A stretch of 64,000 nt of DNA from Amphiscolops sp. MND2022 (Eukaryota), in assembly GCA_964187785.1 (NCBI GenBank), contig OZ076409.1, positions 1,178,001 to 1,242,000 of the forward strand. The letters run 5' to 3'. This document shows positions 5,570 through 60,299 of the stretch, piece by piece. The notes under the pieces were generated by a model. It saw nothing but the letters and a program-made list of their open reading frames with translations, made no database searches and was not told the origin of the DNA. The position numbers were made by a program, and so were the translations under genes. Positions within the stretch are counted from its first letter, which is position 1, and each line of letters starts with the position of its first letter.

Positions 5570-5588
5570 GATCCCACCCTTGTCACCA
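5570..5588 (-). promoter_or_regulatory. Primer-binding site, tRNA-Leu type
   Basis: TGGTGACAAGGGTGGGATC begins 1 nt after the LTR end and resembles the complement of tRNA-Leu 3' ends (TGGTGTCAGGAGTGGGATT / TGGTGGCAGCGGTGGGATT). Confidence 0.75.
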
Positions 5589-6326: not shown

Positions 6327-6880
6327 ATTACCAGTCACTTGGCTTAGTACCATTTGACTTAATTTTTTCGTTGAGTCATTTGGCCTAAAAATTTTAGGCC
6401 AAGTGGCCACAAAATTTAGCCAACTCAATTCCAACTCAAGGAGTAAATATGTCAACTCCCGGAAATATCATAATGTGGGGCATATGCGGTGTATGCACGC
6501 TCGCCCTCACCGTTGCAAAGACCAGCTCCCACTACGATCACTTCGCAGTCTTCGTTGCCGCTAGGTCTTTGCTCTTGTTCGACCTCGCTTAGCAAGATGG
6601 TAATATAAACGGCCCCAAGGGGCCGCAGGGCACTAGAGGAAATGGGGATATATCCGAGGGTACTTGATATGACATGTTATAATAATACGCTGACTACGTT
6701 AAAAAGATAAATTCGACAAAATCTGCCACGTGTTTTCAACTAAGTGGGTTTAAGTCAAATGACTTTAAGCCAAGTGACCAATACCCGAGACACTTAGCTT
6801 AAAAAATTAAGCCAAGTGACCATTTGTATTAAACCAAATGACTTTAAGCCAAATGGCATTAAGCCAAGTGCCCATTTACC
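6327..6880. mobile_element. MULE/Foldback-like MITE with modular subterminal repeats
   Basis: TSD GACAAGGAG at 6318-6326 and 6881-6889. Arms are built from inverted CACTTGGCTTAA / TTAAGCCAAGTG units. Confidence 0.8.
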
Positions 6881-6889
6881 GACAAGGAG

Positions 6890-9800: not shown

Positions 9801-10540
9801 GATATATCGGATCACTTGAATTTCTTCCTCTTTTTCGCCAGCTAATTCATTCTTGATGTCATCAGTGGAAATTTCAAGCGGCACATATCACCACTTGTTT
9901 CTCACTCTAGTGCAACAGTCTTTGTTGGTAAATAATAGTACAATCTTCCCAAGCTTGTTGATAGAAAAGAAATCCAGTTTGATACCGGGGAAATGAGTAT
10001 ATAGTTTAGTAATACAATGGAAGGAAACATATCATCATCTATTGTGCAAGAAATGTATAGCGTTTGTTTTTCAGGATATTTACGATTATCAGTGCTAGTT
10101 TCATTTACATTAGTATTGGTTTTTCTGAAACTTTGGATGCACAAAAAGGTTTATTGGTATTAAACGAGGTTACTAATCTTTTATATCTTCAATGTCCTTC
10201 TTCATTTCTAGATTGCTAAACACACACTTGAGACGATCATCTACATTGTCCAGACACCAACCACAGAACCACTTGCAGGCGTCGATCTCTCCGATTACTT
10301 TTAATTGCTTCAAGGACAAACTCGAACAATCTTCATGAAACCATATAGAGCACATGTCACACATTATTGCTAATAGACCATTTAGGACCTCCACATCACA
10401 CTTCTTGCAAACGCTTTCCGATGCCTCGTCAATTTTTGTATATTCTGCATTGTGATTCTCCCCGTCATCTTCGGCCGATCTCTTAAATCCACTAGGGCTT
10501 CTTCTTATCGGCACACCACCATATCTCATCTATTTAATAA
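6890..10540 (-). mobile_element. Degraded near-full-length LINE (I/Jockey/Nimb-like): ORF1 with PHD + Zn knuckles, APE endonuclease, RT
   Basis: PHD CKKC..CDMCSIWFHEDC..CGWC (10173-10529); QCFNCQQCGSHVSKIC and CVNCGNDH; DWNSRHPLWGD (~8960-9000); WRPISLTS, QFGFQPGKST, LPQGAVLSP, YADD. Many frameshifts. Confidence 0.85.
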
Positions 10541-24834: not shown

Positions 24835-25373
24835 GCAATATTATAACACTAATTTCTGGAGAATTGTCATGAAAGTCCTCCATGGCAAACAAGAGGACTT
24901 GCTGGCTCCACTGAAGAGCCACTTGTTCGAAACTCCTCTTGATCCCAGGACCAATACATAAAAAGAGGCCTTTTTCTTCAGTAGACACTCACCACCTTTC
25001 TGCTCAATATCTCCAGTCGCTGACTAGCTAAAATCTGATAAGCCTTGGCTTGACGTCCGATCCGTTTCCATCAAGAAGCCCTCAAAAGCGGACTACAATG
25101 ACCCCACGGCAGATTCACCTGTTGTCGATATCCAGTCATATCCCCGAAGTCTTCGAAAGGATTCTCAAAATTCGGTTTTCTGACAAGTAACCTAATTGAC
25201 TTTGATCAAGAAAATCTTCTACCCAAGAAGATCACAAGCAGATCATTAGGGGTGTGCGATTAATTGATATTTCATTGAAAACCAATGAATATAATTAATT
25301 CATTGTTTTTATCAGCGCTGTAAATTTTCAGTCAATGAATCAATCTCAATTCTCATTGGCTGTTTTTAGGAAG

Positions 25374-35524: not shown

Positions 35525-35724
35525 NNNNNNNNNNNNNNNNNNNNNNNNNNNNNNNNNNNNNNNNNNNNNNNNNNNNNNNNNNNNNNNNNNNNNNNNNNNN
35601 NNNNNNNNNNNNNNNNNNNNNNNNNNNNNNNNNNNNNNNNNNNNNNNNNNNNNNNNNNNNNNNNNNNNNNNNNNNNNNNNNNNNNNNNNNNNNNNNNNNN
35701 NNNNNNNNNNNNNNNNNNNNNNNN
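35525..35724. other. Assembly gap (200 N)
   Basis: Run of N. Confidence 1.
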
Positions 35725-41094: not shown

Positions 41095-41503
41095 CTAAAC
41101 CACAATCATTCTACGTGGTATATTTTAACTACAGTACTTGTCGCAAAAACAGCATCAATTCAACATTCAGTATATCATCTTTTTTATTTGATAGGTTAGA
41201 ATACAACAAAAGTAATCATCAACTTGATTGACTAGTATTCAAGCGAGTGGTCTGATGCTTGTTTTTTTTTCGTAGGTGACATCTGCAACGTCAGACATTT
41301 CAACGAGTATCATCATTTGACATCATTGATTAGAAGAAGTTAATGTTTTAATTATCAAAATGGAATGAACGTAATTTCAAGGCAGTTTGTTGACGTTTTT
41401 TCTTGTAGTTTTGTCATGCCAATAGAATGCCTCGAGAATGCAGCTCTTTATTGCCTGGAAAACAACATTTTACAGCGTTAAAATAGAATCAATGAATTGC
41501 AAG

Positions 41504-41904
41504 TGTGATGCCATGATGCATGTCCTCAAAGATTCTATAAATTTGAAATACTCTGAACTCTTAACCAAACCAATTAGTAAATGTAATCTAATTTAGAAAC
41601 TAAGAAACTTCATTTAATAGATCCTGTATCAAACTCCCCTGCTTCATCCTGTTGCTGTCACATTGTTAATTGATGTAACCTACCCTAGTTAATAGAATAT
41701 ATCTACTCGGAGAAATTGAGAATTCATCCTAGCAATCAGTCTTCCTCCCATACTCCAAGAACTGAGATCTCAGAAATAGATTGCACTCAGAACTAGCTAG
41801 CTACAAGATAAAAGATAAGACGACTCCGCTGTTAAAATCTTAGACTTCTTATGTCAGTTCTAACTCTTCTAAAAGAAACAACCACACAACTTTTTAACAG
41901 CTCA
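41504..41904 (+). repeat. 5' LTR
   Basis: Direct repeat of 59034-59434, followed by AT and TGGTGCGACC (PBS candidate). Confidence 0.97.
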
Positions 41905-42597
41905 ATTGGTGCGACCAAGAAAATTCTTTTCTGTCTCCCATTTATTTCACACACCTACAATTGTTGTACTTCTTTCCTTGACTTTCTCATACGCTATCTC
42001 TTTGTTCGACACACAGTTTCTCCACCTCTCAACATCGCCTATCGTTATTAACTTCAACGTTGCAACCAATTTCTATTTGAAATTGATTCGTGTTGCTATG
42101 GTTCTGACTGCGTTTCTCAACGTAATTCCTGTCAGTCATATTTCTTGGTTCTGACTACGTTTCTTGACGTAATTCCTGTCAGTAAAATTTTCGTTCCAAC
42201 CACCACTGAGTGAATTCGTGTTGGCTTTCTCTCTTTCTTCCGTTCCAACCGCAGACGTGCGATACGTGTTGGCCCTTCTTCAAGTGCTATCCAGCGATTC
42301 CTGCTAGTAAAAATCTCTTTGGTTCTAGCCGCTTGGATCAACTTTAAAGTTGGCACACATATTTAACACATATTTTCTACATAACATATTTATAATACCT
42401 TCTTATTCTCTCTTCTATAGTACAAACAGCATACAAAACTCTTTTAAAACTTGCTTACGGATCCAAATACACAACAATTAAGATATATAACACAGAAATC
42501 ACATATTTCTTTATATAACTTTCATTTTTCATACACCTATATACAACAAATTTTTGTACAACCTTTTTGACATACTCTTAATAAAACTTTATTGTAC

Positions 42598-42720
42598 ATG
42601 CCGCCTTCAGTAGACACTATAGTTAAACTTATTGTCTGCTTTTGGTTCTTTGTTGCTATCATTGCTGGTCTTGCACTTTTTCTGGACAAATTCTTAATTT
42701 CATTCATACCAAAATTTTGA
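42598..42720 (+). CDS. 40-aa single-pass transmembrane uORF
   Basis: MPPSVDTIVKLIVCFWFFVAIIAGLALFLDKFLISFIPKF*, translated by hand. Confidence 0.45.
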   Translation: MPPSVDTIVKLIVCFWFFVAIIAGLALFLDKFLISFIPKF

Positions 42721-42739
42721 AGTACAACCTTTTTCTTCT

Positions 42740-42979
42740 ATGTTAACAAGTATAGTACTACCTCTTTTTGGACTACTTAGTATCTACCACACTTTCCATA
42801 TACTTATCCAATATATACAAAAGCCATTCCTTCTTTTCATAAGTATTGCACTTACTATTTTCTTACAAGTTGCTTTCATAGATCAAATTTTACCATATAA
42901 CTCACACTTCAATACAAAATATCTTCTTTTCCGATACATCTATCCTTTATGGCAATCTTATTGTACTAATCAAACTTAA
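42740..42979 (+). CDS. 79-aa hydrophobic uORF
   Basis: Two hydrophobic stretches; ends 9 nt before the gag ATG. Confidence 0.45.
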   Translation: MLTSIVLPLFGLLSIYHTFHILIQYIQKPFLLFISIALTIFLQVAFIDQILPYNSHFNTKYLLFRYIYPLWQSYCTNQT

Positions 42980-42988
42980 TATCATATA

Positions 42989-45900
42989 ATGCTCCCCACT
43001 CCATTTACAGTCACTACTGACAAAAGACAAAATCGATCTCTTATACAAGATGTAACACCTTTTCTACAAAACATTATCTTTCAGTACACTAACCCACTTC
43101 CATTTGAAACAGAACCCCATATATTACATACTATTCCATTAGTACGAGAACATTGTGATTCTTACCTATATTATATCCACTATAAAACACTTGATATTAC
43201 ACCATCACAAACTCCTTTTCAAGTTATTTTTAACCCTGTTAAAGGAATAAATTCTGGAACATTTTATAGAACTATACACCCACAGAATATTACACTTTCT
43301 ATACAAGATGTTTTTCACACATACATGCAAAAACTCATTGAATTCAATGAACACCAAGACACACCACTTTATCGTCCTTCTCATTCACAAGAACTAAAAC
43401 ACCTATCTGAATATTTCGAGGTCCCCGATCTTGACACGAAAGTTCAAAGACATGATAACCCTCATTATTGGCTACAACGAGATATATTACAAATAAAACA
43501 TTTCCAGTTCAAATTCTTTACAAAAATTATCCTTACAGATGATACTATACCTCAAGTCAAAATTTTTACGCATTTCTTATTAAAGTTCCTTAGATTTAAC
43601 TATCAACTACTTTGGGAACAAAAAGACCAACAAGCTTATATTAACTTCCCACAAGCACTAACACATATAGAACTCCTACCATACATCATAAACAATCAAA
43701 ACAAACATTTACATTACATAGATCTTACTTCATTAAATGTTACACATTTTGAACAAATAAACCTAGATCACAACTTTGTACTTGAACATTCTGAAACTTC
43801 AGATAACAGACCTTATACTACATCTGATACTTCTCATACAACAACTCATAAAGAACAAACCTCTAATACCCAACCTTCATATATCAGACAACAATCAGAA
43901 CAATCAGAACAAACAGAACAAGAATCACCAACGCAAGAAACACTTGTTAACCTTTTTCAAAATCCTGATTCTCCTTCGAGACAACCACAATTACACGTCT
44001 CTGATATACAACTCCCAAATCCTTCTGAAACAAATACAATTCACATTACATCAGAACATTCTGAAGAAACAGTACAAAATACACGAAGTTTTACAATAAC
44101 GGATGATTCAAATCTTATAATCATTCCTACCCACACTATCACCCAAAACGAAATTACAAACCAAAATCAAGACAACACTTCAAATACTAACCCAGACAAA
44201 ACCTCTGTTTTATCTACATCTAATACTACTATTACACACCCCTCTCACACACAAATACTATCTCCTCGAAATTATAATCCACCTTCTGTTCCACCTCAAT
44301 TCTCAACTCAGATAAATACCCATAACTCTCCACAACAAAGCTCTTCAAATACACACTCTATTACACAGAACAATAATACAGTACATTTTCAAACACCAAC
44401 TCCACCATCATCTTCTGAAATACAATTTTTAACTTATACTCCAGCTCAAACCAATTCAGTACAAACTACACAGCCTACCTTAAACATTAACACAATTCAT
44501 TCCAATCCCTCTTCTAAATATACCACAGCCAGACAACTTTCTCGACCTCCTTTACAACCTATATTAACTAATCCAATATCATACAATCTTACCAGTACTA
44601 ATCCAAGTCATACACAACAATCTCAGATAAACTATAACACACACAACCAATTAAACACTCTTTCTTCCCAACATACATCCAATACAATCACTCCTACATT
44701 ACAAACTTCCCAATTTCATATACCAAATCCCCCTTCGACAACAATTAGAACTAACCCTCACCTTCATAGTACTTCAACTACTTCTTTACCTAATATTTCC
44801 AATAACCCCACATACAATACAACACCTCCATCTACTATGTCTCATAACACTATGTCACACCCAACATATATTAACTCTTCTACTTCTATATCAGAACCCA
44901 TTAAACCTTTTGATGGACTCGATCACAACTATACACCTGAAGAATATTTACAACATATTGAGGCACGTGTTACATTTTCCTTAGGTTTACAACCTACATT
45001 GGAACATGAATATAAATTTTGGCACGCCCGTCGCATGGCTTTTATACAATGCTCTTTAACAGGTACAGCACTAAGCTGGTACATTCGTTTAAACGACACT
45101 TATAAACAAGATTGGCACGCTTTTGTACAAGCTTTCAAAAAACAATTTTCCTCACAAAAGAACGCTTACTATGCTCAAGTTGAAGCCCTTAATTTAACAA
45201 AGAAAGACAATGAAACAGTACGTCATTTTGCACTCAAAGTTCAACAACTGGTTGAAAAAAAGGCTGTTGTAATGAGAATGCATCTACTATAAACCTTAAA
45301 TGTAATGAACTCTTTACAAAAGGACTTCCAAAAAACCTTAAAGATTTTGCAAATAAAAGACAAGTAAAACACACCTCCACTGTCTTAGAACCTTCAATTC
45401 CTTTTCATACTTTGGTAAAACTTGTTGACGCCGAAGATATTGCAAACGACAAAATCAGAACACACGATCTTGCACTTGAAATCAATAATATTACAAAACA
45501 ATTGAACACTCAAACTCTAGATCACCCATCTCAAGAACAACTTATGTATACACAACCCAAAGACCCAAATAACAAAAATAAACCTGCATATAAAAAATAT
45601 TGCTCATATTGTCATAGAACAAATCACTCCATTTCTGCTTGTTTCAAAAAACAACGAGATGACGAAGATTAACGAGAAGCATATGCTCGATCAAAATCTC
45701 CACAAAAATCATTCGTTCAGTACTTTCGTTCTCCTTCCAATGACAGAACAAAATACTATGATAATCGATACCGAAGTCGAAGCACTTCACGAGACAACTC
45801 TTATAACCAAAAATATTCACAAAACCGATACCGTTCTACATCTCGAGATAGAGACAAATTTCGTTATGACAAAAGTACTACTCCTCCACACTACTCCAGA

Positions 45901-46128
45901 TCAAGATATGACACATACAAACGTGATTCTCGATCTTACCGTTCTCCTTACAGATCTTCTTATAGATCCCCATATAGACAAAACTCTCGTCCTAGATACA
46001 GATCACGCTCTTATTCAAGAGATAACAAATTCACCAAATACACAAATTCATATAGACCACCTTCAAGACCAAGAGACTCTCGATTTTCTAGATCTCGCTC
46101 ACACTCAAACTCCAGAAATAAAATCAAT
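42989..46128 (+). pseudogene. gag: gag: long N-terminal extension, capsid, CCHC knuckle, RS-rich segment
   Basis: IKPFDG...IQCSLTGTALSWY capsid motif; frameshift in the A-run near 45255; CSYCHRTNHSISAC; one TAA at 45670-45672, then an open frame into pol. Confidence 0.85.
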
Positions 46129-49100
46129 ATGATACAACAACAAGAGCAAACTGACCCTATCAAATTTGAAGTACACATGTATCACCCAACAGCAATGGCA
46201 AATGCTGTCACACCTACAAGTTGGTTTTATACTCTATATGTACACACCCCATCAAGTATAGTACAAAGAGACAACCCATCTAGACTAGAAATTGCATTCC
46301 TCCTAGATAGCGGTGCTTCCATTTCTGTACTCAATTATCCAACATACATAACTCTTACAAAACTTCTCGATATCAGACCAAATCACACCTCTGATGTTGG
46401 ACCAACTCGAAATTCCAAAACACTAACTGTTGCAAACCAAACTGAAGTTCCTATTTTACATTATGCAAATGTAATTCTCAACACCACCATTGACGAAAAC
46501 TCTCGTTACTTTTCAGTACCCTTCGCAGTAGCTGATATCAAATACAACATCCTTGGCACACCATTCTTTGAAGACAATATACAAAACATAAATATTCAAG
46601 ACTTTACACTCGAATTTAAATACCAATCAACAACACACCCAAATTATACAAAATTCACAACACTCCTATCTAAAGATTATCCATACTTCTCTTACATTTA
46701 TAGAATTAACTCAAAAACTCAGATACGTCTAAAACCCAAATCTTCCAAAATTGCACACTTTCCGATCAAAAATTATCATAATCTTCATTTTACAACCACA
46801 CCACAAAACCACTTCTTTCCTTCAGTACCTCATACCTATTTTGCTACCAAATTCCGTTCAAACTTCAATTTCATTGAAGTATTCACAGACGACAAACCAG
46901 ATATTTGTGCAACTATTATTCAGAACACTTCAAAACATATTGCAACCCTACCTACAGGACATATTGGATACATTGAAGTTCCAATTACTAATGAAAAACC
47001 TAATTTCTTCCAAGTCAACGACATTAATACTTTAATACACAATGTTACCCATACTTATCATCCTGATATTACTGAACCACTTCCACAGACCAATTATATT
47101 GTACAATATGATCCTACAACCCCTCCTCCACAATTCTCTCTACATCAAATTTATATGACAAATAACGACATTCCAAACCAAACTTCTCCTTTATATAACG
47201 TTCAGCCTACTTCTCATACTTCCGAAAAACGCATTTTCCCTTCTCTACCATATACTTCTGAAAATCTGAAATTTATTAATAAATTTAACTTCCAATTTTC
47301 TGACCTTACAGATTCAGAATACATTACTCTTTGCAATATGTTACTCAAATATAAAACATGTTATGCAACCCATAAAAACGATGTTGGAAAAATTTCAACA
47401 CCCTTTCGTATAAGACTTAAACCAAATGCTCAACTTATGACACAACGTCCTTCCAAAGTCCCTATTCACTACCGAGACAAACTTAATGTACTTCTTATAG
47501 AACTCGAAAAATATAACATTATCAAACAAATTGGTTCTTCTCCTCAAGACAAACCTGTTTATGGCACAACTTATTTAAATCCTCTTATTATAATCCCCAA
47601 GGGAGATACAATTAAATGTGTATTAGACGCTCGACATCTTAACTCCAATACAGAACAATCTGATGAATCTTGGCCTATTGAACCTCTTGCTCCACAACTA
47701 GCACGCGCAAACAAAAAGTACAAATCTGCTATTGACCTTATGTATGCCTATGCACATACACCTCTTGACGAAGATACTATAAAACTTACCAGTTTCTCCT
47801 CCGGAGACAAACTTTTCTCTTTTATCCGAGGCTTCTATGGTCTCAAAGGACTACCAAACTTCTTTACAAAACAAATGTCTACTTTCTTTAAAACTCTTAT
47901 AGAACAAGGTTTCGCTCTTGTCTACATTGACGATATATTACTTTTATCTGATTCTAAAGAACACATGTTTCAACTCATAGAACAATTACACATTTTTAGT
48001 ACAAAAACTAATCTTAAACTAGCCCCTGAAAAATCCTTTTTCATGCTTCTTAAAGTCAAATTCCTTGGACATGAAATTGGTTACAATACAATTAAACCAA
48101 TCCACTCAAAAATTGCAGCTATTCATAAGATCCCTTCTCCAACTGGCAAAGTTGCCCTAATGAGTTTCATTGGCGCACTCAATTTTTACACCAAATTTAT
48201 TGAAAAACTACATATTAACCTCAAACCGTTTTACGATCTTTTACATGAAAACACTCCTTGGAAATGGACAGACGAACGCGAAAGTCTATTCCAAAAACTT
48301 AAAATGTCTCTCACTTCTGAAACAGAATTAACAATACCAAATACAAAGCATCCATTTTTCATTACAGTTGACGCTTCCCTTATTGGATTAGGCGCTGTCT
48401 TATTCCAATTAAATGAACAAAACAAAAAGAAAGTCATATCGTACAACTCTCGTATACTTAATCCACAAGAACAAAAACTCTCCACACTTGATAGAGAACT
48501 TCTTGGTATAGTACACGCACTTCAAATCTATGAATTTCTCATCATAGGTTCTCCCCATCCAATACATATTTTTACTGATCACAAACCTTTATTACATTGT
48601 TTTACAAAGAAAGGTAATCTCAGTCCTCGTTTCTACAGAGCTCAAATGCAACTGACAAAATTTTCAAAACTCAAAATAATTCACACCCCTGGAAAAAATC
48701 TCTCTGTTGCCGATATGTTGAGTCGCTCATTCACAAAAGCTGAATTACAACTTAACCAATTAAAACATAAACACCTCCCACCACAAATCGATTTTGCACT
48801 TTTACAAGATAACACTCTCAAACCTGTACATTACTTAATAAAACATGAAGAAATTCTACCTCATCAAAAACATGACTCTCATCCAATTCTTGCTGATTAT
48901 GGTACAGATCAATTCTCTATTCGTATCAATGATAAAGGAAATGACATTGTTGTCAAACCGTTACAATCCTTCTCATTCAAATCCATAACTCCTTTCCAAA
49001 CTAAGTTCAGGACACCTACCAAAAAGAACAACAAAACCCTTCATCAACAATCTCTCTTACTTAATGATACTGACGTTACAAGTGATGACGAAGATCATAT

Positions 49101-51183
49101 TTACACCAGAATTCCAAAATCTAACTCTTCCTTCTTACAAGACACAACATTACAAACAGAAAATTATTCTACTCTTAAACAACCAACTCACAACACCTCA
49201 CAGAAATCAGTTTCTGCAATAAATGTACAACCAAATTTACCATCTCTCACACACTGTCAACAAATCGTACCTTTTTATGATACACCATTTTTTAAGTACA
49301 AAAACTATTTTCAAGGTTTCTTCCTTCTCGATGATTACTCATTAGACATAAAAACTCTTCAACAACAACAATCTCAAGATCCGGTTCTTAGAACTGTTTA
49401 TTCTTGGTTATTAAACAATGAAAAACCCGAATTTGTAACACCTCTTATCACTGGTACTCCATTTCTACATGTATATTACAAAAGATTTTCACAACTTTTC
49501 ATTGACGAATCCACAAATCTTATTAGTCTATATATTACAAACCCTACTGTTAATAACCAATCCTCTACTCCAAATTTTGTACAAGACACTATTCGTATAT
49601 GCCTACCTTTCCGACTGTTTAAAACTGTCTTTAACAAACTTCATGAACACTCTCATACTGGTATGAAAATCACCTTCAATACATTCAAACAATATTACTA
49701 TATCCCATTCCTTGAAAAATGGCTTTCCATTTTTATACATGATTGTATTGAATGTCAACGAAACAAACACTTTAATATGAAAATTCAAACTGCTCCCACA
49801 CAATCTTTTTCAGAACATGCTCCATCTTTCAACTATCGAATTTCAATGGATACTAAAGGACCTATTAATCCTCCTTCTCACAACAAATCCTATATACACG
49901 TGATAATTGACGCCTTTAGTCACTTTGTTGTTACAGTACCCATCAAATCAAACAACGCAAAGACTGCTATCAAAACTCTCCTACACCATTCGATCATTAA
50001 ATTTGGACCACCCATATATCTTGTCACTGATCGTGGATCAGAATATGTTAATAAAGAAATGGCACACCTTTGCACACTTATGGGAATTCGTCATTCTCCT
50101 CGAACAGCTTATTCTCCTTGGACAAACGGCCTTGTTGACGTACAAAATAGAAATCTTGGTACCCATTTACGAATGTTCTTACATGATACACCTAAAGATT
50201 GGGCATTCCAAGTCCATTTGTACGCTTATGCACATAACTCACAACCACTTTCAGAACTCAACATTTCACCTCACGAAATTGTTTTCCACACTCGACCCAG
50301 AATACCCCTTACCTTTGATTTGAACCTTAACCGAGACACCTCTAAAACATGTATTTCACGATATTGCTCTCAACTTCCAGCACACTCCCATTATGATAAA
50401 TCCGATTTAAACCCATTTTTCTATAAAACACTTTCAAAACCCATACCACATTGGTTTCTCGCTGTAGAAACTGCTATGTTACAAATTTATTCTACAGTAT
50501 ACGAAAACACTCAACGAAAAGTCAATTCACACGCATACATTACAAAAACTTACCATGAAGGTAAACCCCTTCCTATTGGTACCTTTGTTTTAAAACGCAA
50601 TTTTACCCACGTTCACTTTTCTGACAAACTAAAACCCCTTCGGATTGGACCATATAAAATTCTTGACAGATTATCAGACGTCACATATGCACTACTTGCA
50701 CAAGATGGCTCCACAGTACACGTCCAAAGAAATCATTTAATTCCATACTATCCAAAAGAACCACTCTTATATCCACACCTGCGTAGTTTTATGCGCTTTT
50801 CAGACACAACTCAATTTCAAATTCCACAACCTACCAAATATGCAAACAGTGATTCTTCTCCTTTTAACTCTGACGAATCGTTGTCAGAAGAAGATTCCCA
50901 AACATTTGTAACACCATCATCATTTAGTACATCCAATCAGAATACACCACCTATAACATCCAATGACAGTTCTTTGACTCCCTCAACCAATGACAACTCC
51001 TTATATAGACATATAATTAATACCCCTCATACTATTATCTCTAATGACAGATCAAGACACTCCTCTAATAACCAAACCACTTCACTTCCTCCTCTAATTG
51101 ACAGAACCACAACAACTACCTATAAACTACGACAACAGCCCAAATTAGATTATAGACTTTTTATTACACCTTCACAACTGTAA
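46129..51183 (+). CDS. pol: pol: aspartic protease, RT, RNase H, integrase (1684 aa)
   Basis: LLDSGAS; LDARHLN, YIDD; VDAS...DRELL...TDHKPL; HEHSH..CIEC, SMD, TDRGSEY, GPY. The catalytic Glu position reads NGLVDVQNR. Confidence 0.95.
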   Translation: MIQQQEQTDPIKFEVHMYHPTAMANAVTPTSWFYTLYVHTPSSIVQRDNPSRLEIAFLLDSGASISVLNYPTYITLTKLLDIRPNHTSDVGPTRNSKTLTVANQTEVPILHYANVILNTTIDENSRYFSVPFAVADIKYNILGTPFFEDNIQNINIQDFTLEFKYQSTTHPNYTKFTTLLSKDYPYFSYIYRINSKTQIRLKPKSSKIAHFPIKNYHNLHFTTTPQNHFFPSVPHTYFATKFRSNFNFIEVFTDDKPDICATIIQNTSKHIATLPTGHIGYIEVPITNEKPNFFQVNDINTLIHNVTHTYHPDITEPLPQTNYIVQYDPTTPPPQFSLHQIYMTNNDIPNQTSPLYNVQPTSHTSEKRIFPSLPYTSENLKFINKFNFQFSDLTDSEYITLCNMLLKYKTCYATHKNDVGKISTPFRIRLKPNAQLMTQRPSKVPIHYRDKLNVLLIELEKYNIIKQIGSSPQDKPVYGTTYLNPLIIIPKGDTIKCVLDARHLNSNTEQSDESWPIEPLAPQLARANKKYKSAIDLMYAYAHTPLDEDTIKLTSFSSGDKLFSFIRGFYGLKGLPNFFTKQMSTFFKTLIEQGFALVYIDDILLLSDSKEHMFQLIEQLHIFSTKTNLKLAPEKSFFMLLKVKFLGHEIGYNTIKPIHSKIAAIHKIPSPTGKVALMSFIGALNFYTKFIEKLHINLKPFYDLLHENTPWKWTDERESLFQKLKMSLTSETELTIPNTKHPFFITVDASLIGLGAVLFQLNEQNKKKVISYNSRILNPQEQKLSTLDRELLGIVHALQIYEFLIIGSPHPIHIFTDHKPLLHCFTKKGNLSPRFYRAQMQLTKFSKLKIIHTPGKNLSVADMLSRSFTKAELQLNQLKHKHLPPQIDFALLQDNTLKPVHYLIKHEEILPHQKHDSHPILADYGTDQFSIRINDKGNDIVVKPLQSFSFKSITPFQTKFRTPTKKNNKTLHQQSLLLNDTDVTSDDEDHIYTRIPKSNSSFLQDTTLQTENYSTLKQPTHNTSQKSVSAINVQPNLPSLTHCQQIVPFYDTPFFKYKNYFQGFFLLDDYSLDIKTLQQQQSQDPVLRTVYSWLLNNEKPEFVTPLITGTPFLHVYYKRFSQLFIDESTNLISLYITNPTVNNQSSTPNFVQDTIRICLPFRLFKTVFNKLHEHSHTGMKITFNTFKQYYYIPFLEKWLSIFIHDCIECQRNKHFNMKIQTAPTQSFSEHAPSFNYRISMDTKGPINPPSHNKSYIHVIIDAFSHFVVTVPIKSNNAKTAIKTLLHHSIIKFGPPIYLVTDRGSEYVNKEMAHLCTLMGIRHSPRTAYSPWTNGLVDVQNRNLGTHLRMFLHDTPKDWAFQVHLYAYAHNSQPLSELNISPHEIVFHTRPRIPLTFDLNLNRDTSKTCISRYCSQLPAHSHYDKSDLNPFFYKTLSKPIPHWFLAVETAMLQIYSTVYENTQRKVNSHAYITKTYHEGKPLPIGTFVLKRNFTHVHFSDKLKPLRIGPYKILDRLSDVTYALLAQDGSTVHVQRNHLIPYYPKEPLLYPHLRSFMRFSDTTQFQIPQPTKYANSDSSPFNSDESLSEEDSQTFVTPSSFSTSNQNTPPITSNDSSLTPSTNDNSLYRHIINTPHTIISNDRSRHSSNNQTTSLPPLIDRTTTTTYKLRQQPKLDYRLFITPSQL

Positions 51184-51273
51184 TCTAGTCATTCTATCTG
51201 TTGGCTCACTCAAAACTAGTCACTCCGGTTGAATGAATGAAATATAACCCATAACAAGTTATCTCAAAGATAA

Positions 51274-52515
51274 CCTGTTGAAAACACTTCAACAACCCTG
51301 GATTCTTCCTCTGATATATCTCCATCAGCTCCAAGTATTCCTTCCCCACCTGAATCTTCAGTATCTAGCACCACAAACTCTAGTAATGTAACTCCTACTA
51401 CTCCTTCTAAAAGACCAAGATCATACATCTCTGAAACCACCTCTTCTTCACTTCTTCACAGACCACCTATAACCGAAATTCCTATAAACACTCGTCCCCA
51501 ACAAACTCCTATTAACACTCCTATTATACACATACCAAACCCTGAAAGTGTTGAACAATACGTAAATTACAAACATCCTACAGCTATCAAAACTGTTAGA
51601 CTACAACCTCAACTTAATCTAGTACAAATCCCTGACACTGAATATACAAAATTACCTTCACTGAAACTACCATCAGAACTTAGTACTACTTCTTCAAAAC
51701 TTTATCCACCACTAAAACCTCTTCGAAAACCTTCTACATCACTCTCAAATCTTTTAGACAATAATACTTCAGACTACGCTCCATCACGAGACACAAGCTC
51801 ACTTTTTGTACCTACTCATAGATATAATCTTCGTGACCTCCCTTCACGTAGACTTAGTACAGACACTTCAACACTCAATTTTTCCGCTCTTTCTAGCAAT
51901 TCTGCATTACGACTTGTAAGACAACACGCTCAACCATTGTCCTCTGACACACCATCTTCAGAACTCTTTCAATCTCCTTATTTTACTTCTGGTTTTGAAA
52001 CCGCTTCATTACTCTCATCTAACCCACAGACTGCATTTCTATCAGGAGATCTCTTTTCACAAGTAGTAATCCCTACTCCTGTTCCTGCACATATTAGACT
52101 GCCCGAATACTATACTGCAGAACACTCTAGACCTCCAACTCCAAATTTTGCTGACTATCCACTTAGAGTCGATGGTATAACCATCTACGACCCACAAAAC
52201 GATCTCCGATTTCCAATTCTTGCAGAACGTTTTATTAACAACAACGACCTCTTATCTCACAAACGCAAAGAAACAGAACTAAAACGTCTCCAGACATCAA
52301 ATCTAGAACTTAAATTTGAAGTCAAAGTTAAATTTCAAGAATTAAATCCACACCCAATATTTCACGTTTCTAAGATAGAACATAAAACCTCTCCTGCTCC
52401 TTTCGAAGTAGTACATATTGAATTTGAACGCGATCTTAATATACCCACTATCACATATGGCAACAGTGTCTTCTGTAACCCATACTTCGGTCTCAAATAT
52501 ACAACATCTTCTTAA
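51274..52515 (+). pseudogene. Ser/Thr/Pro-rich open frame (~413 codons, no ATG), probable env leader
   Basis: Stop-free by hand translation; overlaps the env signal-peptide frame near 52500. Confidence 0.55.
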
Positions 52516-55163
52516 ACCCTACATAACCTTTTACATAACAACTCTAATTCTTTATTTACATTTTTTTAACTCTACCTTTTCCATACCTATAACACCCTCT
52601 GACACAGAAAACTATCTTCCATCGGATGACCCGAATATTACAAATCTCATGGTTTCTCATTATGACTGTGCAAAACAACACAATCTGAGACAATTTAATC
52701 TACTTAATGTAAAACAATGCACTGAAGCTCCTTCCGACATTAAACATGCCAGTGTTAAAGCCCGTGTATATGTCCGAGCAAAAGCTAAACGTATCAAAGC
52801 TTTCAAATGCGTTGCTTATGCAAAGAAAGAAAGGAAAATATGCTTTCAAGGATCTGTAAAATAACGTCGTGTTGATCGAACCGTATGGAATCATAATACA
52901 TTACCGCTCCGTTACTCTTGATCCGGTAGAATGTAAAAACATTATACGCCATTTAAATGGTACAAATGATAAAATACTGAATAACCTTCAATACAACAAA
53001 ACCTTTACACTCTTAGAAGACCATTATTTTCAAGAACGTTTAGAACAATATCAAACTCCTTTCACTGTATATCAACTGAACAAAATGTATACAGGTACAT
53101 TTACATTTATGCCTGCTGATAAAAACTGGATATATGACCCTACAAAAAAACCTTATCATAACTGTCCTGCTCATCATCAATTCGAAGTTAACTTAGTTAG
53201 TTGGCGACTAGAAATTTCTGAAGTAGAACTTACATATGATGACACATCAAATGACATGATAATTGATGGACATACATTACCCTGCTACTTTGCAGATGGC
53301 TTCTGTAAACCCACTGCAAAAACTCCTTTTACTCTTGTTTGGTTTAATGATGATTATTGTCTAATTTTTACCCTACAAGACTTTATTGGACGTATGACTA
53401 AAATTGAAGATAGATATTGGATTGAAACAGACTCTTTTGTACATTCTCCACATCCAATAAAATCTAAAACTGCTTCTGGCATAAAAGGTACAGAACACCC
53501 CTATGTTTATGCCCCTCATACACAACACCCAAATAATCCAAGTCTTTCAAGATTTGAAGTTTTCCCTACAGCACACACATTTTGTGGTAAACCAGACCCT
53601 CTTTATTCTACACAATATTCAGACCTTTTTGTTACATACACTGATGGTTTCAATATGCATACAGGACAACCTAATCCTCATTCCATGATTGATGAGTATA
53701 TTTCTGGTAAAATAGTATTGGACACTTCAAATAACAAATTTGTTTTTCCTGCATTAAATGTATCAAACAATTTTGCTACCATTGATTATGATGCACATAT
53801 AAACACCAAAATCGATTATACTATTAATCATGTTTTCCGATCAATGACAGTACAAGAACTAAATACTCTTCATACAATATGTGAACTAGAACGAAATCAA
53901 CTCCTTACAATACTCGCAATGTCAGGACAAAACCCTCAACTTGCTGGATTCCTTTTAATCGGTAATAGAAGTAACTTCTTATACGTTGAAGGCTCAACCG
54001 CCTGGCTTTACGACTGTCCTCATTTTTTATCTCCTTTATACAAAGCAGATAGATGCTTTGACCGTATACCCATACATTTTAAAGATACCTTAATGTACGT
54101 TGATCCTATTACAAGACAAACTTATGATTATGCTACACCAATTACATGTGATAGTAATCCACGTAACATTATTGAACTAGATCCTGATTCAGACGATCAA
54201 GACTTTTACATTCTTGGACCTGAACCTATCAAACGCAAACCTCCACTAATGTTTACACCCTCACAAATCAAAACTACAATACGCCCTAATACTTTTACAG
54301 CCCAAGATGCTGGTATATATTCAAATGCAGAATTTGATCATTTTTGGAACCGTATTTTATTTTCTAAACATTCTGATTCTACACTCCAATTACTAGGCAA
54401 AGCTCTTAGTTATTCATTCATTTCATCTAATACTCCAAATTACGATGCAGATTCCCCTCAAGACTCTGGTAATCCTTACAATACATTACGCATAGGACTC
54501 CACGATAAACTCTTGAATTTAACTCCTCTTTTTACACCTACATGGTTTTCAGAAGCTTTTATTGCACTTTTTGGATACCCTTGTTACATTCTCACACAAT
54601 GTGGTATATACTTTTCTACATTTCTTTTCGTACAAGCTGCTCTTACGCTCATTGTGAAACTGTACAAAACAATATCTAATTAATATAATCTCAAAAATAA
54701 TATTACTTCACTTAGTTCTATAGCACATGGTTTTTTTAATGTTCTTACAGCACGAATGGTCAGTGACCTCCATGAGACTCAAAACAGAAAACCCAAAAGT
54801 ACACTTTTCAAATCCAAATCTTTAGATAATTTTATTGACACTTCTCCAAATTTAATTAACCATTCTACAGATGTTACTTCCCCTCCACCTTTCTATACTA
54901 AACGACCTAACAAAATTCAATTTCCTAAATTTAACTTCTTTCCGAAACGACACCACAATTCTCACCATAAAACGACTCCACTTCCTTTCTCTCCTGTTCA
55001 ACATCCTACACTTCCTAATTATACTCATAAAAACTTTCACTCGAATGACAATTTAACTACTCAACATGACACTTTAATTAACAACCCTGTCACTTCTACT
55101 ACGGATACACCAATTAAAATTTATTCGCGGATAAACTATCCTTTTCCTCCTCTATTTTCTTGA
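52500..55163 (+). pseudogene. env: env: class III (herpes gB/chuvirus-like) fusion glycoprotein
   Basis: Hydrophobic signal, HYDC..NVKQC..AFKC, ICELERNQL..NPQLAG, YDC..CFDRIPI..YVDPITR..TPITC, then a TM segment and tail. TAA at 52862 and 54681; frameshift near 52908. Confidence 0.8.
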
Positions 55164-55428
55164 ACACTCTCTCAGTTTTTCTCTAACTCTCTTTCAGTAC
55201 ACTTGCCTACTATTTCTTCACAATTGCTACTCCTCCACCACTTGAAACTCTTGCCGAAGTTCATCTTCCTCAGCCCAATAATACTTCTCTCATAATAACC
55301 GTCTTCAAAAACTCTTCAACTAAAGTTGACAAATCCACTCGTTAGTGTAATTTATAGTACTTTGACTTTAAAGTGCTAAGGCCTCTTGGAATAGATAACA
55401 CTGTGATTGTTGATGTTTTTAAAAAACA

Positions 55429-56757
55429 ATGACGCAAGCACAAATTGACCTACAAACACAGCTTGAACAAGCAACCCCAACAGATCTAATAACTAGACCT
55501 CTTTCAAATGATTCTCCTGTTCTCTATATTGAGACTTCAGAACAAACACCTCCAACTTTCCTTGAACCAATGGAACACACAAAAGTTGAAAATGAAAATC
55601 CAAAACCTACTCCTCCACAAGATGATACTGATCATACACAATCGGCACCACCTCCTCCCAAAAAGCGATATGAAATAATGAAAGATCCAATCTTTCTTTC
55701 ATCACCAATATATCCTCCTTCAATACCTTCAAAAATTTCACTTTGTACGAATCGCGATGATCATTTGATCTCAATTTTTTCTACTGACGATTTCGTCTTC
55801 AAAGCACAACTAACTTCTCTATATATGCATCCTACTGACTATTCATTTCGCTTATATGACAAAAATCAAGACTTCTTCACATCCATTGCTTCTAAAATAA
55901 TGGGTCCATAACAATATTGGCTCGAGAATGGAGTTAAAATTTTCTCTCTCCAATTCAATTTTCTTCGACCTTCTATATACGATCTCAAAACAGATGAATC
56001 TGATCCATCCTTTCTCTCTATAGCACAAAAAGCTACTCATCATCAGACATATACTAAATTTCTACAATACACGAAACCACAAAATCACATTTTTGTCAAT
56101 TACAAATATACATCACCGTTCACAATGACAAATATGTACACTCTGGACCACTCCTGTATAACAGGCTACCTTCGGAACTATGACCCTATAAAGCAATACT
56201 TCTGTTTGCTTCCATATAACAATACTTCACGTCCACTTATTGTACCTCAAGAATATCTCATACATTACGATGATTTTTTGTTGCCTTGCAACATTCCTAC
56301 TCAAATTGCAAAACCTCTTACTGTTATTAAACAACTCGTTTCTTCTCCACTTCACGATAAAGATAGAACGTACTATACAGCACTCTACAAACAAACGTAT
56401 TCCTACAATGAACTTCTCTTTTTCTCTGCCAAAGCTATCTCTTTCATGGTACAAGCTGAACAAAAAACTGAACATAAATCACACGCTTCACCCATAAAAA
56501 ACGCTCCTGACAAACTTTCCTCTGTAATAAACAACCGAACACTTCGCGACATAACAAATTTACTTGAACCCTATAAACGAAACTCCTCTGAAACACCTAT
56601 CACAACACTCACACATATACTACACTGCTACGACAGAACACACAAACTCCTTCAGACACTCGATTTAGACTCTCAACGCATCACTCAATCATCCCAAGCA
56701 ATCCAATCTGCTTTGGAAACTATAACTACTCTTTTTAACTCAACTAATCTTCATTAA
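55429..56757 (+). pseudogene. Accessory ORF (~442 codons, one in-frame TAA at 55909-55911)
   Basis: The 160-aa and 210-aa ORFs share a frame with no other stop between them; includes PPPPKKRY. Confidence 0.6.
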
Positions 56758-57177
56758 TGTTCTTCTACAGGTAATATAAAATTCTTAATTTTTCTTCTAT
56801 GGTACACTCTATGATACATCTGTGACACATCCTTCAAGGTATTTTCATTTTTACCTACTTCTTTAAAGTAAATTCTTGCTTTTGAATGAAATCTCAGGAC
56901 TGTTTTTTAAGTACACTAATTTTTCCTACAGTACATGTCAAAAAACTAACTATTTCTACTAAAAACACTACAATACAAGACATACAAGACAATATAGCAC
57001 AACACTAAATATGATACATTCCAGCTCCAAATTTTGTTGTACATCTTTGACTTGATATTGACATTTTTTCTTACACTTCCTCTGTTTTAGAAACATCTAT
57101 TCTTCCTCCTCCTTCATCCAAATTCTTTCAGAACATCCCAACTTCTCTTTCTTCGCATTCTTCCAACCCTCGTCATC

Positions 57178-57630
57178 ATGGCTCCAAATGCTGAAACAAA
57201 CGACATTATCACTATGACTTCAGAGTTTTCGAAAGTGCATAGTCTCAAAGCCGCCATTTTTCACACCATGGCATTCAAACTCTCGCTTGAAATTCACAAA
57301 AACAAAATTACGCCAAAATGTCTCATCGCTTTCTTAAAAGTCCTCTACAATGTCACGCAGATAAAAAAGAAAAAAATTACTTTTGAGCAATACTCGCGGA
57401 TCCATCTTCAAGGACCTAAAATTGCCATTTGCGAAACGGCCTCTAATGTTGTTTTCGTCCTAAATTCTTCCTTTACTTCAAAGGATCAGTATTTTCGTAC
57501 TGCTCTCCAAGAAGCCACTGACGCTTTTAATCATATGCTGAAAGATTTCGGGTATACTCAGAAATTAGAACTCTATGACCCGATCCAACACCAAACTCAT
57601 CCTCCATCGCAAAACTCTTTCTTTCAATAA
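57178..57630 (+). CDS. Accessory ORF, 150 aa, unknown function
   Basis: Intact ATG-TAA ORF inside the LTRs; splice-acceptor-like site at 57065-57090. Confidence 0.55.
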   Translation: MAPNAETNDIITMTSEFSKVHSLKAAIFHTMAFKLSLEIHKNKITPKCLIAFLKVLYNVTQIKKKKITFEQYSRIHLQGPKIAICETASNVVFVLNSSFTSKDQYFRTALQEATDAFNHMLKDFGYTQKLELYDPIQHQTHPPSQNSFFQ

Positions 57631-57855
57631 TCTCTATAACACAAACTTCTACTTACTTCTATTTCACTCTTCAACTGCATTTCATCTCCAAATCCTTCAT
57701 CTTTCTTCGATGATGCATTGAAATGTGGTTGCTGATCACTCCTCCCAAGAACTTCTCCTACACATGCTGACACTCTTCACTTCACCCATCCACGATGATC
57801 AACAACATCCATCTCCATTTTGGGTTCATCGACGTTGCCAAACTTTGTCCTCGTC

Positions 57856-57972
57856 ACTGGTCTTCACACCTCACGATGACTTCTTGACTGGTCTTCATAC
57901 TTCAAATGCTGACTTCTTGACTAGTCTTCACACCTCAACTGCTGACTTCTTGACTGGTCTTCATACTTCAAT
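57856..57972. repeat. Short tandem repeat, 31-33 bp period, ~3.5 copies
   Basis: ACT(G/A)GTCTTCA(C/T)AC starts at 57856, 57887, 57920 and 57953. Confidence 0.8.
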
Positions 57973-59033
57973 GGCCAATACAAATTTCAAACTGAACTGT
58001 ATAATCACTTTTAACCAATATAACCTGTAACTTATTTTAATCAAATTATAACTTTAATACAGTCTAGTGCTATATACTCTTATCTAATCTTTAGTGCTAT
58101 ATAATCTTATTTAATCTTAATCTTCTCTAATCGTAGTATAATTACCCCCATTAAAAATAATCCTTCCTAAATTCTACCTATAATTATCCTTGTAACCACA
58201 ATAATATCTAGTTCCATTGTATTGTGTATCGTACAATAACTTAATCTTATCTCATTATGTTGATACTTCTATACTACACTTTAAAAATATATCTCCAATA
58301 CCCATCTTTTACAGAACACAAGTCGTACTTACAGTACAAGAAATTTTCTAAGATTTTTGGACAAAATTTTTCTTTAACAAAACATGTTATACAACTTCGT
58401 TTTAATCCCCAAAAGCCTTCCCAACAATTTTCCAAATTTTCTTTAGAACTCTTCAAAAATGTCACTTCTAGTTTTCCAATGTTTGAAACTTGAAATAGCC
58501 AAAGTTTTTTTCAACTCTTGCTTCTGCTCTACTCTTCACTTTTGTTGAAAATGAACTCTCACTAGAACCTTGACTTTTCGAAACTTCTTCACTTTTGGTT
58601 CACATACCCGCCAATGTTGGTTCACAACTCATTGACAACTTCACGCTTTACTTCTTCAACTTGAAAAATTTTCAATGCTGACTAACTCATGTTGGTGAAA
58701 GAATTTTTCGAACAAGCCGATGGCTGATACGAAAAAGAAACATGAAATGATAAATAGTTGTCAACAATAACTTCAAAGAACTTGTCAGTCAAAGAAACTG
58801 AAAGAACTTGAACCTTGCTTGAACCTTTTTGCACCAATTGAAACGTCTATGACGTAAGAAGTCAAATCGTCTTAGGTTGTTCTCACTCCTTAAGTATGGT
58901 ACTCTATAAAACAAAACTCATGCAACTCTAGTACAACACAAATGAAACAAACCCATGCATATAACAAAAACTTCTAGAACTCCTCAAACCCAAACTGCAT
59001 ATATGTAATTTAATTTTTAAATTCCCGGTTGAT

Positions 59034-59434
59034 TGTGATGCCATGATGCATGTCCTCAAAAATTCTATAAATTTGAAATACTCTGAACTCTTAACCAAAC
59101 CAATTAGTAAATGTAATCTAATTTAGAAACTAAGAAACTTCATTTAATAGATCCTGTATCAAACTCCCCTGCTTCATCCTGTTGCTGTCACATTGTTAAT
59201 TGATGTAACCTACCCTAGTTAATAGAATGTATCTACTCGGAGAAATTGAGAATTCATCCTAGCAATCAGTCTTCCTCCCATACTCCAAGAACTGAGATCT
59301 CAGAAATAGATTGCACTCAGAACTAGCTAGCTACAAGATAAAAGATAAGACGACTCCGCTGTTAAAATCTTAGACTTCTTATGTCAGTTCTAACTCTTCT
59401 AAAAGAAACAACCACACAACTTTTTAACAGCTCA
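59034..59434 (+). repeat. 3' LTR
   Basis: Direct repeat of 41504-41904. Confidence 0.97.
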
Positions 59435-60299
59435 CAAGAATGATCTCTTGAAACAAATATAAATTACACAGAAATTTACTGCCAGCTGTCACTTGATTGG
59501 TTTTATGGTGACAGCCCAGATATATGATACATCAGGGTACCCAGGAGGTAAAGACTCAATTTCTCAAATAAACATCAAACCGCAACAAATTTTATAAACA
59601 ATTGATAAAAAAGTCCCACGGCCGAAATTTTGATTTTTTTCTTCTGAAAACAGACAAAAATTGCAAAAGTTACAACACTTGGCTTATTTTTGACTGTTTT
59701 TTGAAAGTTATCCTGCAAAAAGCTCGAGGTCAATTTTATATCTTGATTCAGATCAAAAACATTCGATTTCAGAATTTTCCTTCTAACAAAATTAGACGGG
59801 AAAAATGCAATTTTTTAACTTCTTGAAAATGTTTCAACGGGATTTCAATTGTCCTTGGCTGTTCTTTTTTGTTGAAAAAAACATTTGAAGAAGAAGTGTC
59901 AGTATGAACGAAAGAACGGTGTAAAGGCGCCAAAATTCATCTTCCCCAATAATTCCCCGATACACCAACTTTTTACTTTCATTGCATTTCATAACAAAAA
60001 GGATAATTGTATTTCTGGACTAAATCTGAAAAGCTCTGGCTCTCTGGAATTTTTTGGATGTCAAAAGCATGCCTTGAAAGAAAAAAGTGCTCTATTAAAG
60101 TTTTCACCTGTCATATTAGCTGTCTTCAGCTTTTTGGTACCAAAAATAGTTGGCATCAAAACATTATCTCGAAAAAATTGTGATCTTGCACAAATCTGAA
60201 ATAGCATTTTTTGTGTGAAAAATCACAAAAAATAAAACATTAAAAGTCCAATTCTTTTTTTTCTTTTTTTGATTTTTTGAAGACAGACTCGAAGCGACG

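Follow-up and report, generated by a model that had tools for sequence, protein, structure and literature searches.

Two overlapping genes probably follow pol in an LTR retroelement of Amphiscolops sp. MND2022. The first is ORF-L, a methionine-free open reading frame that likely begins at a CUG codon. The second is env, which has its own AUG and encodes a protein predicted to be a class III fusogen of the herpesvirus gB type. The element lies in a 64,000-nucleotide stretch of genomic DNA (referred to here as the window; positions are counted from its first letter). The original prediction had merged both genes into a single Env of ~1,300 codons, in which an ATG-less leader and an ectodomain frame were joined by one frameshift. 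Analogues for such a long leader are the foamy virus Env leader peptide and the long signal peptides of betaretroviruses.

Architecture of the element

The region under study belongs to a 17.9-kb LTR element at 41504-59434, a broken copy whose paired 401-bp LTRs are 99.5% identical and carry a CAAG target-site duplication on both sides (Table 1). Pfam domains in Pol follow the order RT (residues 678-802), RNase H (865-997), and integrase (1314-1482), and a protease motif was spotted by eye. From this domain order and gypsy-type Pfam matches only, we infer an affiliation with Ty3/gypsy. The ORFs located 3' of env gave no Pfam match, and for 55912-56754 the best ESM Atlas value (0.83) was at noise level. 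Searches of viral, metagenome, and prokaryotic genome contigs returned no related loci.

Table 1. Features of the element and their positions in the window
Feature	Position	Strand	Description
5' LTR	41504..41904	+	401 bp, TG...CA; CAAG at 41500-41503; PBS-like TGG tract from 41907
gag	42980..45672	+	Two frames; long S/T/Q/N-rich N-terminal part, Retrotrans_gag PF03732 (E 4e-9), CCHC knuckle
pol	45673..51183	+	Gypsy order: protease motif, RT, RNase H, integrase with SH3-like end
Two uORFs, 4 and 5 codons	51233..51254	+	ATG 51233 and ATG 51237
ORF-L	51298..52515	+	405 codons, Met-free, predicted CUG start; open frame from 51274
env	52457..55163	+	~900 codons, own AUG; broken in this copy
Env signal peptide, predicted	52457..52581	+	Hydrophobic core ~52523-52567; hydropathy 1.69 over 15 aa
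Class III fusogen ectodomain, predicted	52640..54540, approximate	+	Sibling residues 61-664 align to gB
TM helix, predicted	54590..54660, approximate	+	
Env tail frame	54684..55163	+	159 codons; amphipathic helix, then disordered part with PPPFY at 54882
Further ORFs 3' of env	55423-55911, 55912-56757, 57091-57630 (span 55423..57630)	+	
3' LTR	59034..59434	+	CAAG duplication at 59435-59438

ORF-L is a gene separate from env

The ATG-less, S/T/P-rich frame that had been placed at the start of Env does exist. It is Met-free and extends from 51274 to 52515 (413 codons stop to stop), with a disordered S/T/P-rich N-terminal part, a more conserved C-terminal part of ~160 amino acids, and no hydrophobic segment. 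Among the 69 sibling proteins that reach its last nine residues, drawn from the best 120 of 252 ORF-L homologues, 58 end at the same stop codon over an identity range of 60-96%; these siblings are not independent and possibly all come from the assembly of one species. The same pattern was seen by eye, without a formal count, in 27 of ~30 further cluster members. In addition, a sibling contig covering 50209-57155 is colinear, with zero indels between 50242 and 52909, junction included. The env AUG at 52457 overlaps the final 19 codons of ORF-L, whose residues remain conserved across the overlap. The Env residue above the ORF-L stop, as deduced from protein, is always K, E, or R (15 of 15 siblings), which is compatible with TAA, TGA, and TAG and suggests that the stop has been retained via synonymous change. 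Judged by sequence comparison, ORF-L is coding and under purifying selection; seven of the nine substitutions shown fall at third positions (p 0.008).

The frame change at the junction is thus a natural ORF overlap rather than a lesion. The shared ORF-L stop, Env's own AUG, and the colinear sibling contig speak against a long foamy- or betaretrovirus-like leader within one Env. Leader and env are separate ORFs in the large majority of siblings, not in all: 7 of the 120 homologues listed run on into the env frame, which they enter at six different positions. If an ancestral env had been a single continuous frame of ~1,300 codons, with the junction as its lesion, these seven proteins would be accounted for, and the span from 51237 to 55163 does come to 1,309 codons. 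However, seven joins at six positions are what random indels or sequencing errors inside the overlap would be expected to produce, and the single shared end codon, the colinear contig, and conservation of ORF-L through the overlap all argue against this reading, which is already largely refuted and scarcely credible. The ATG at 51237, where the original prediction begins, was rejected as a start, as it opens a 5-codon uORF in another frame and the sibling contig has no indel joining it to ORF-L. What remains of the proposed separate leader protein is a separate gene; since ORF-L lies outside Env, it is not a cleaved leader peptide.

A long-leader Env could also be a recoded product, with a programmed +1 shift at the last codon and stop of ORF-L yielding a minor ORF-L-Env fusion of ~1,300 amino acids. 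Phe followed by a stop ends ORF-L in 56 of the 58 siblings, resembling the shifty stops of other viruses, and 2 of the 69 sibling proteins enter the env frame exactly at the ORF-L end. A distant relative, P0072 (1,179 aa), has an extension of ~260 aa before its signal-like helix, but this extension shows no similarity to ORF-L. Env, moreover, starts 19 codons before the ORF-L stop with an AUG and signal peptide of its own, and this copy carries Ser at the ORF-L end. The sibling proteins further imply that stop identity varies and that, in 3 of 15 Env N-termini, the Phe codon would be unable to re-pair after a +1 slip. No close Env relative of 1,064-3,035 aa was found in a weak search that missed two distant long relatives. 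We regard such recoding as improbable and retain two separate genes. ORF-L itself had no Pfam match and no similarity to other proteins of the element; its C-terminal part reached at best 0.81 in the ESM Atlas, which is noise level, and AlphaFold2 gave a pLDDT of 37.6 for the last 192 residues.

Env is a predicted class III fusogen

Env is intact in natural siblings of 901 (P0271), 911 (P0272), and 918 aa, which head clusters of 1758, 603, and 424 members, respectively; P0271 and P0272 are predicted to contain a signal peptide, a gB-like ectodomain, and a TM helix. The signal-like segment of the original prediction was recovered as a hydrophobic stretch at ~52508-52566, in the frame next to that of ORF-L. 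Of the 19 Env relatives listed with this segment, 14 start at the Met matching 52457 and none extends upstream of it, a count that is partly circular because start calls were made by a gene caller choosing ATG, GTG, or TTG. In this copy, env is broken in three places that had not been listed previously. TAA stops lie in frame at 52862-52864 and, a few residues past the TM helix, at 54681-54683, and an indel near 52,910 changes the frame. The predicted ~160-aa tail with PPPFY is present as a frame (Table 1) but is cut off by the last of these stops, so this copy cannot make it. The env pieces in the window lack an R-x-[KR]-R site.

The CELER, CFDRIP, and DPITR motifs on which the class III assignment had been based were located at 53880, 54054, and 54102, and the assignment itself was borne out by a PF24664 match above the cutoff (E 6e-19) and by structural comparison. 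A monomer model of P0271 (pLDDT 67; central helix at 444-489) was matched by Foldseek to HSV gB (E 3.8e-13) and to chuvirus G (E 8.4e-30). Comparison of the model with gB using VIA gave Z 11.9, with Z 8.6 and rmsd 3.7 over 157 residues for gB domain IV. Whole-chain TM-scores to gB were low (0.2-0.3, rmsd 15-20), and a profile search of PDB sequences with Env gave 0 matches. The predicted fold supports Env as a class III fusogen of the gB/chuvirus G type. The G proteins of chuviruses/Monjiviricetes and herpesvirus gB are the best structural matches of Env; it differs from them in its low identity (9-15%), in being carried by an LTR retroelement, and in its long, motif-rich tail.

Translation of ORF-L and Env

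The CTG at 51298 stands in a strong context (ACC-CTG-G; -3 A/+4 G), and conservation of ORF-L among siblings starts at its Leu. In 35 of 36 siblings, the codon of the residue preceding this Leu begins with A, and sibling N-termini vary in frame and length up to that very residue. Met accounts for 14 of 35,797 aligned sibling residues. Only two ATGs occur in 1,183 nt, versus 5.3-8.6 expected (p 0.03-0.009), and both open uORFs of 1-2 codons. Composition explains part of this scarcity, since ATGs are likewise sparse in the S/T/P-rich part of Gag (3.0 per kb, versus 1.7 in ORF-L), and a codon test within ORF-L was not significant (p 0.15). CUG 51298 is the likely start of ORF-L, with env presumably reached by leaky scanning.

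Ribosomes would scan a single subgenomic RNA starting near the end of pol. Some would initiate ORF-L at CUG 51298, and the remainder would pass four uORFs (1-5 codons) and initiate Env at AUG 52457. Env would then be a conventional type I membrane protein, with a signal peptide, an ectodomain, a TM helix, and a tail of ~170 aa whose PPxY may recruit Nedd4-type ligases or ESCRT for particle release or Env trafficking. ORF-L would be a soluble accessory protein, and its PSAP, LYPxL, and YNLR words would suit an adaptor role like that of p12 or p6.

Splicing could alternatively serve the two separate ORFs, with the AUG of ORF-L provided by a 5' exon and env expressed from another splice or RNA, and with neither a CUG start nor leaky scanning. 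Tor3a elements are reported to have a spliced env mRNA (PMC4402516), and Cer1 an accessory protein expressed through splicing (PMC10309623). However, an upstream splice acceptor would not tolerate sibling N-termini that vary right up to the conserved Leu, and splicing would require neither a strong context around the CUG (-3 A/+4 G) nor an ORF-L devoid of internal Met. We consider splicing unlikely and favor initiation at the CUG. Among titles and abstract openings, mostly of open literature, we found no publication on non-AUG starts in gypsy elements.

Comparison with known systems

A gB-type Env in Ty3/gypsy errantiviruses has been published by Chary and Hayashi in a survey of 1,512 elements (PMC13524379). 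As described in its main text, the HSV/gB-type errantiviruses resemble the present element in their LTR-gag-pol-env order, gypsy-order pol, signal peptide, gB-like ectodomain and TM region, absence of a fixed furin site, and many recent copies. The present element differs in having 1.27 kb of coding sequence that separates pol from env, extra ORFs after env, and a length of 17.9 kb. The first filter of that survey allowed 1,000 nt outside insects, and other groups were searched further downstream. The words leader, PPxY, late domain, ESCRT, budding, cytoplasmic, and accessory are absent from its main text.

That additional ORFs can lie between pol and env is already known (PMC6431247). In the gypsy-like Tor4b elements of Oikopleura, pol and env are likewise systematically set apart, and the env RNA begins within this space at an internal promoter (PMC4402516), a precedent for the proposed subgenomic RNA. 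Compared by description only, that space is called intergenic, whereas the space in the present element is a conserved 405-codon ORF. The sobemovirus ORFx, as reported in PMC3791421, resembles ORF-L in lacking an AUG, in overlapping the following gene at its 5' end, in being conserved from a CUG with indels just upstream, and in a downstream gene translated via leaky scanning, as would apply to env. ORFx is much shorter and belongs to a plant RNA virus, and no homology is claimed.

Late-domain-like motifs in the Env tail and ORF-L

Of 16 close siblings, 13 have PPxY at the homologous position of the tail; in the tail of this copy alone, it arises in 6% of shuffles. Distant Env relatives, 24 in number, were considered as protein sequences, and 3 with tails of <50 aa were dropped. 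PPxY, P[TS]AP, or [LFI]YPxL (the last pattern having been set after the tails had been inspected) is present in 11 of the remaining 21 tails, versus 0.93 in 5,000 shuffles (maximum of 6), and in 1 of 21 ectodomain stretches of the same length. Canonical P[TS]AP alone is found in 6 of these tails, versus 0.12 in shuffles. Because the TM helix is followed by another helix of weak hydrophobicity, the tail is placed only provisionally on the cytosolic side. The tail PPxY is plausible as a budding or trafficking signal, better supported at the family level than from this tail. Across the wider gB-type family, Env tails show all three classes of late-domain motif.

ORF-L contains PSAP (51322), LYPPL (51700), and YNLR (51823; YNLRP in one sibling subfamily), kept in 32/40, 77/98, and 95/115 siblings, respectively, which is no better than their flanks. 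With YNLR and late-domain-like words, ORF-L may work like MLV p12 or the foamy Gag motif. The chromatin-binding sequence of foamy Gag is given as GGYNLRPRTY (PMC12125541), and the match to it spans four residues, a YNLR-like word arising in 16% of ORF-L shuffles.

It is quite possible, if short of probable, that ORF-L and env are separate genes and yet that their motifs are by-products of Pro/Tyr-rich disorder with no budding role, ORF-L serving, for example, in RNA export or silencing suppression. An accessory protein acting in RNA export has a precedent in Cer1 CERV (PMC10309623). Consistent with by-products, the ORF-L motifs are not conserved beyond their flanks, Pol also has two PPxY and one LYPxL, and 10 of the 21 distant tails contain none of the three motif classes. 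The excess in tails over composition-matched shuffles, for P[TS]AP in particular, argues against this view, as does the occurrence of two late-type motifs in only 1.6% of ORF-L shuffles. This alternative coincides with the preferred two-gene reading except in its last proposed step.

A rather doubtful extension of the two-gene reading is that the element represents a complex errantivirus lineage whose budding signals would be found not in Gag but in the Env tail and in an accessory protein initiated at a CUG. The Gag frames of the element have no late-domain motif. ORF-L would then be a p12-like adaptor that combines late domains with a nucleosome tether of the foamy type, and leaky scanning would yield both it and Env from one RNA. 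Titles and abstract openings, mostly of open literature, gave no publication on YNLR with retrotransposons or on late domains in retrotransposon Env tails.

Implications

With gB-type Env already established in gypsy elements (PMC13524379, main text), the fusogen alone would make this element one more member; the new parts are the AUG-less ORF-L and the tail motifs. As far as our literature searches reached, no description of the errantivirus budding mechanism was found, and the excess of late-domain-like motifs seen in Env tails across the family would offer a testable answer, Env-recruited ESCRT. A conserved AUG-less gene between pol and env would escape ordinary annotation as well as any survey that limits the distance from pol to env, and complex elements may therefore be under-counted.

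Env and ORF-L as separate genes

The original prediction described a single Env of ~1,300 codons (51237 to 55163) whose long leader joins a signal-like segment through one frameshift. Its elements were all located in the window: the Met-less S/T/P-rich frame (ORF-L, the supposed leader), the signal-like segment, the CELER, CFDRIP, and DPITR motifs, and PPPFY (see the table). The proposed start fails, as the ATG at 51237 opens only five codons in a different frame. A frame change does occur at the junction; it is not a lesion, and three breaks elsewhere in env had gone uncounted, namely, a stop at 52862-52864, a frame-changing indel near 52,910, and another stop at 54681-54683. Because the second stop lies just past the TM helix, this copy cannot make the Env tail.

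Coordinates of features in the window
Feature	Position	Remarks
Degraded LTR element	25369-31112	about 5.7 kb, smaller; repeats 96% identical; strong A skew
LTR element housing env	41504-59434	17,931 bp; LTRs of 401 bp each, 99.5% mutual identity
gag	42980-45672	~620-aa S/T/Q/N/P-rich N-terminal extension ahead of capsid-like domain
S/T/P-rich frame	51274-52515	no Met
Signal frame	52412-52864	signal-like segment
Ectodomain frame	52860-54683	CELER, CFDRIP, DPITR
Tail frame	54684-55163	PPPFY
Post-env ORFs	55423-57630	three (162, 281, and 179 codons), env to 3' LTR

Using the S/T/P-rich frame as the query, we retrieved 252 relatives of 227 to 723 aa, a range unable to reveal long fusions, and counted the best 120. 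Among these, 69 extend to the last nine residues of ORF-L, and 58 of the 69 stop at the window's end codon (60 to 96% identity). The remaining 11 comprise one with the same end (misclassed owing to a duplicated match), two ending a few residues early, five running on in a frame other than that of env, and three entering the env frame; across all 120, seven enter that frame, at six different positions. An ectodomain search among proteins of 1,064 to 3,035 aa found no long Env relative, although this search was weak, in that two distant long relatives escaped it. In an all-length search, no close relative above 334 aa was among the best 150 matches. Between 333 and 1,063 aa, intact Env proteins of 901, 911, and 918 aa were recovered, heading clusters of 1758, 603, and 424 members.

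The 901- and 911-aa proteins map onto the window from the ATG at 52457, 19 codons ahead of the ORF-L stop. Of the 19 listed relatives covering the signal-like segment, 14 start at the Met of this ATG, and none starts upstream (gene-caller starts, hence partly circular). A sibling contig from a public sequencing run spans 50209 to 57155 with 158 substitutions and seven indels; no indel lies between 50242 and 52909 in this one contig (depth, 3.5), which may not be independent of the window's source. Over the ORF-L stop, all 15 of 15 siblings have K, E, or R in Env, which, as deduced from the proteins, fits TAA, TGA, and TAG. Taken together, these observations indicate that the junction is a natural overlap of two ORFs. 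On this comparative evidence, Env is a protein of about 900 codons, separate from ORF-L; the single frame that defines a long-leader Env is lacking in the siblings, most of which keep two ORFs. A recoded ORF-L-Env fusion product is very improbable.

Coding status and product of ORF-L

Judged from its sequence, ORF-L is a real gene: seven of the nine substitutions shown between window and sibling contig fall at its third codon positions (p = 0.008; 40 of 207 differences shown). Conservation starts at the Leu of CTG 51298 (context ACC-CTG-G); ahead of it, neither length nor reading frame is constant among siblings. Of 36 siblings, 35 have Ile, Asn, or Thr (A at -3) immediately before this Leu, and five further siblings were called as starting from the equivalent codon. 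Met accounts for 14 of 35,797 aligned ORF-L residues, a count drawn from sequences related to one another, versus 1.2 to 1.3% in Pol and Env. Just two ATGs occur over the 1,183 nt leading up to the env AUG, opening ORFs of one and two codons, versus 8.6 expected from dinucleotides (p = 0.009) and 5.3 from element codon usage (p = 0.03). On the opposing side, the within-ORF codon test gave p = 0.15, and the S/T/P-rich part of Gag is likewise ATG-poor (3.0 per kb).

ORF-L has no hydrophobic segment by hydropathy, no Pfam match, no usable AlphaFold2 model, and no Atlas match above noise. It contains PSAP, LYPPL, and YNLR; shuffling yields two late-type motifs in 1.6% of cases and a YNLR-like word in 16%, and none of the motifs is better conserved among siblings than flanking sequence. 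The foamy Gag nucleosome-binding peptide begins with a YNLR-matching sequence (PMC12125541), a likeness that we treat as a lead only. Words resembling this chromatin-binding motif are present both in the integrase tail (YKLR; 51121, pol C terminus) and in ORF-L (YNLR; 51823).

Fold and tail motifs of Env

The predicted class III (gB/chuvirus G) fold was supported at the level of a modeled sibling. The window's env pieces match PF24664 (Monjiviricetes_fusion; E = 6e-19). An AlphaFold2 model of P0271, the intact 901-aa sibling (46 sequences; pLDDT, 67; pTM, 0.44), is beta-rich in its N-terminal half, has a central helix of 46 residues, and ends in a disordered tail. With Foldseek, herpesvirus gB was the top PDB match (E = 3.8e-13) and filled all 38 listed rows, and a chuvirus-type G led among viral models (E = 8.4e-30). 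VIA-align gave Z = 11.9 for gB (rmsd, 18 over 438 residues), 8.6 for gB domain IV (rmsd, 3.7 over 157 residues), and 7.2 for a rhabdovirus G. Global TM-scores of 0.2 to 0.3 indicate that the domain arrangement is different or poorly modeled. A sequence-profile search of the PDB matched no chain.

The tail is predicted to be cytosolic, although another helix of weak hydrophobicity lies after the TM. Late-domain motifs of the types counted here are established ligands of ESCRT factors and Nedd4 ligases. In 13 of 16 close siblings, PPxY occupies the homologous tail site. Of the 24 distant relatives (median ectodomain identity, 31%), 21 have tails of at least 50 aa, and 11 of these carry PPxY (3), P[TS]AP (6), or [LFI]YPxL (5; a pattern chosen after the tails were seen), versus 0.93 expected from 5,000 shuffles that kept composition; of 21 ectodomain stretches of matching length, 1 did so. 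Taken alone, P[TS]AP occurs in six tails versus 0.12 in shuffles, and PPxY is weak (p = 0.03). The element's Gag frames contain none of these motif types, and Pol contains three such motifs.

The element and its surroundings

The element is flanked by a CAAG target-site duplication and has a PBS-like tract. By Pfam, gag matches PF03732, and pol (1,836 codons) has RT, RNase H, and integrase in gypsy order. We file it as a gypsy errantivirus with a gB-type Env, its RT placed by domain order and gypsy-type Pfam hits. Gag changes frame near 45,280, a stop at 45670-45672 parts it from pol, and an RS-rich stretch follows its CCHC knuckle. Sense-strand C-over-G skew is strong across the element (about -0.3 to -0.6) and absent in the flanks.

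The three post-env ORFs are likely further accessory genes; they have no Pfam match, and Atlas matches are at noise level. The first two share one frame with a stop between them, and over 57155-57755 divergence from the sibling contig is strong. The degraded element encodes CCHC, RT, RNase H, and integrase. Several near-identical repeats (180 to 300 bp or more) lie in positions 1-9900, as do minus-strand ORFs of 144 to 268 codons that recur two or three times. The assembly is scaffolded, as shown by a run of N at 35525-35724.

Relation to known elements

Gypsy elements with a gB-type Env are already documented across invertebrates (PMC13524379), as are, in general, extra ORFs between pol and env (PMC6431247). 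In our searches of the open-access literature, we found neither an AUG-less gene overlapping env nor late-domain-like motifs in gB-type errantivirus Env tails.

P0072, a distant Env relative (33%; 1,179 aa; single member), carries about 260 extra aa ahead of a strong hydrophobic helix; this extension is unrelated to ORF-L. Given P0072, long-leader Env forms may occur elsewhere in the family. For ORF-L, we infer a start mechanism by analogy: a capped RNA would begin between pol and env, as in Tor4b elements (PMC4402516), and translation would initiate at the CUG at 51298, in an anatomy paralleling that of sobemovirus ORFx (PMC3791421).
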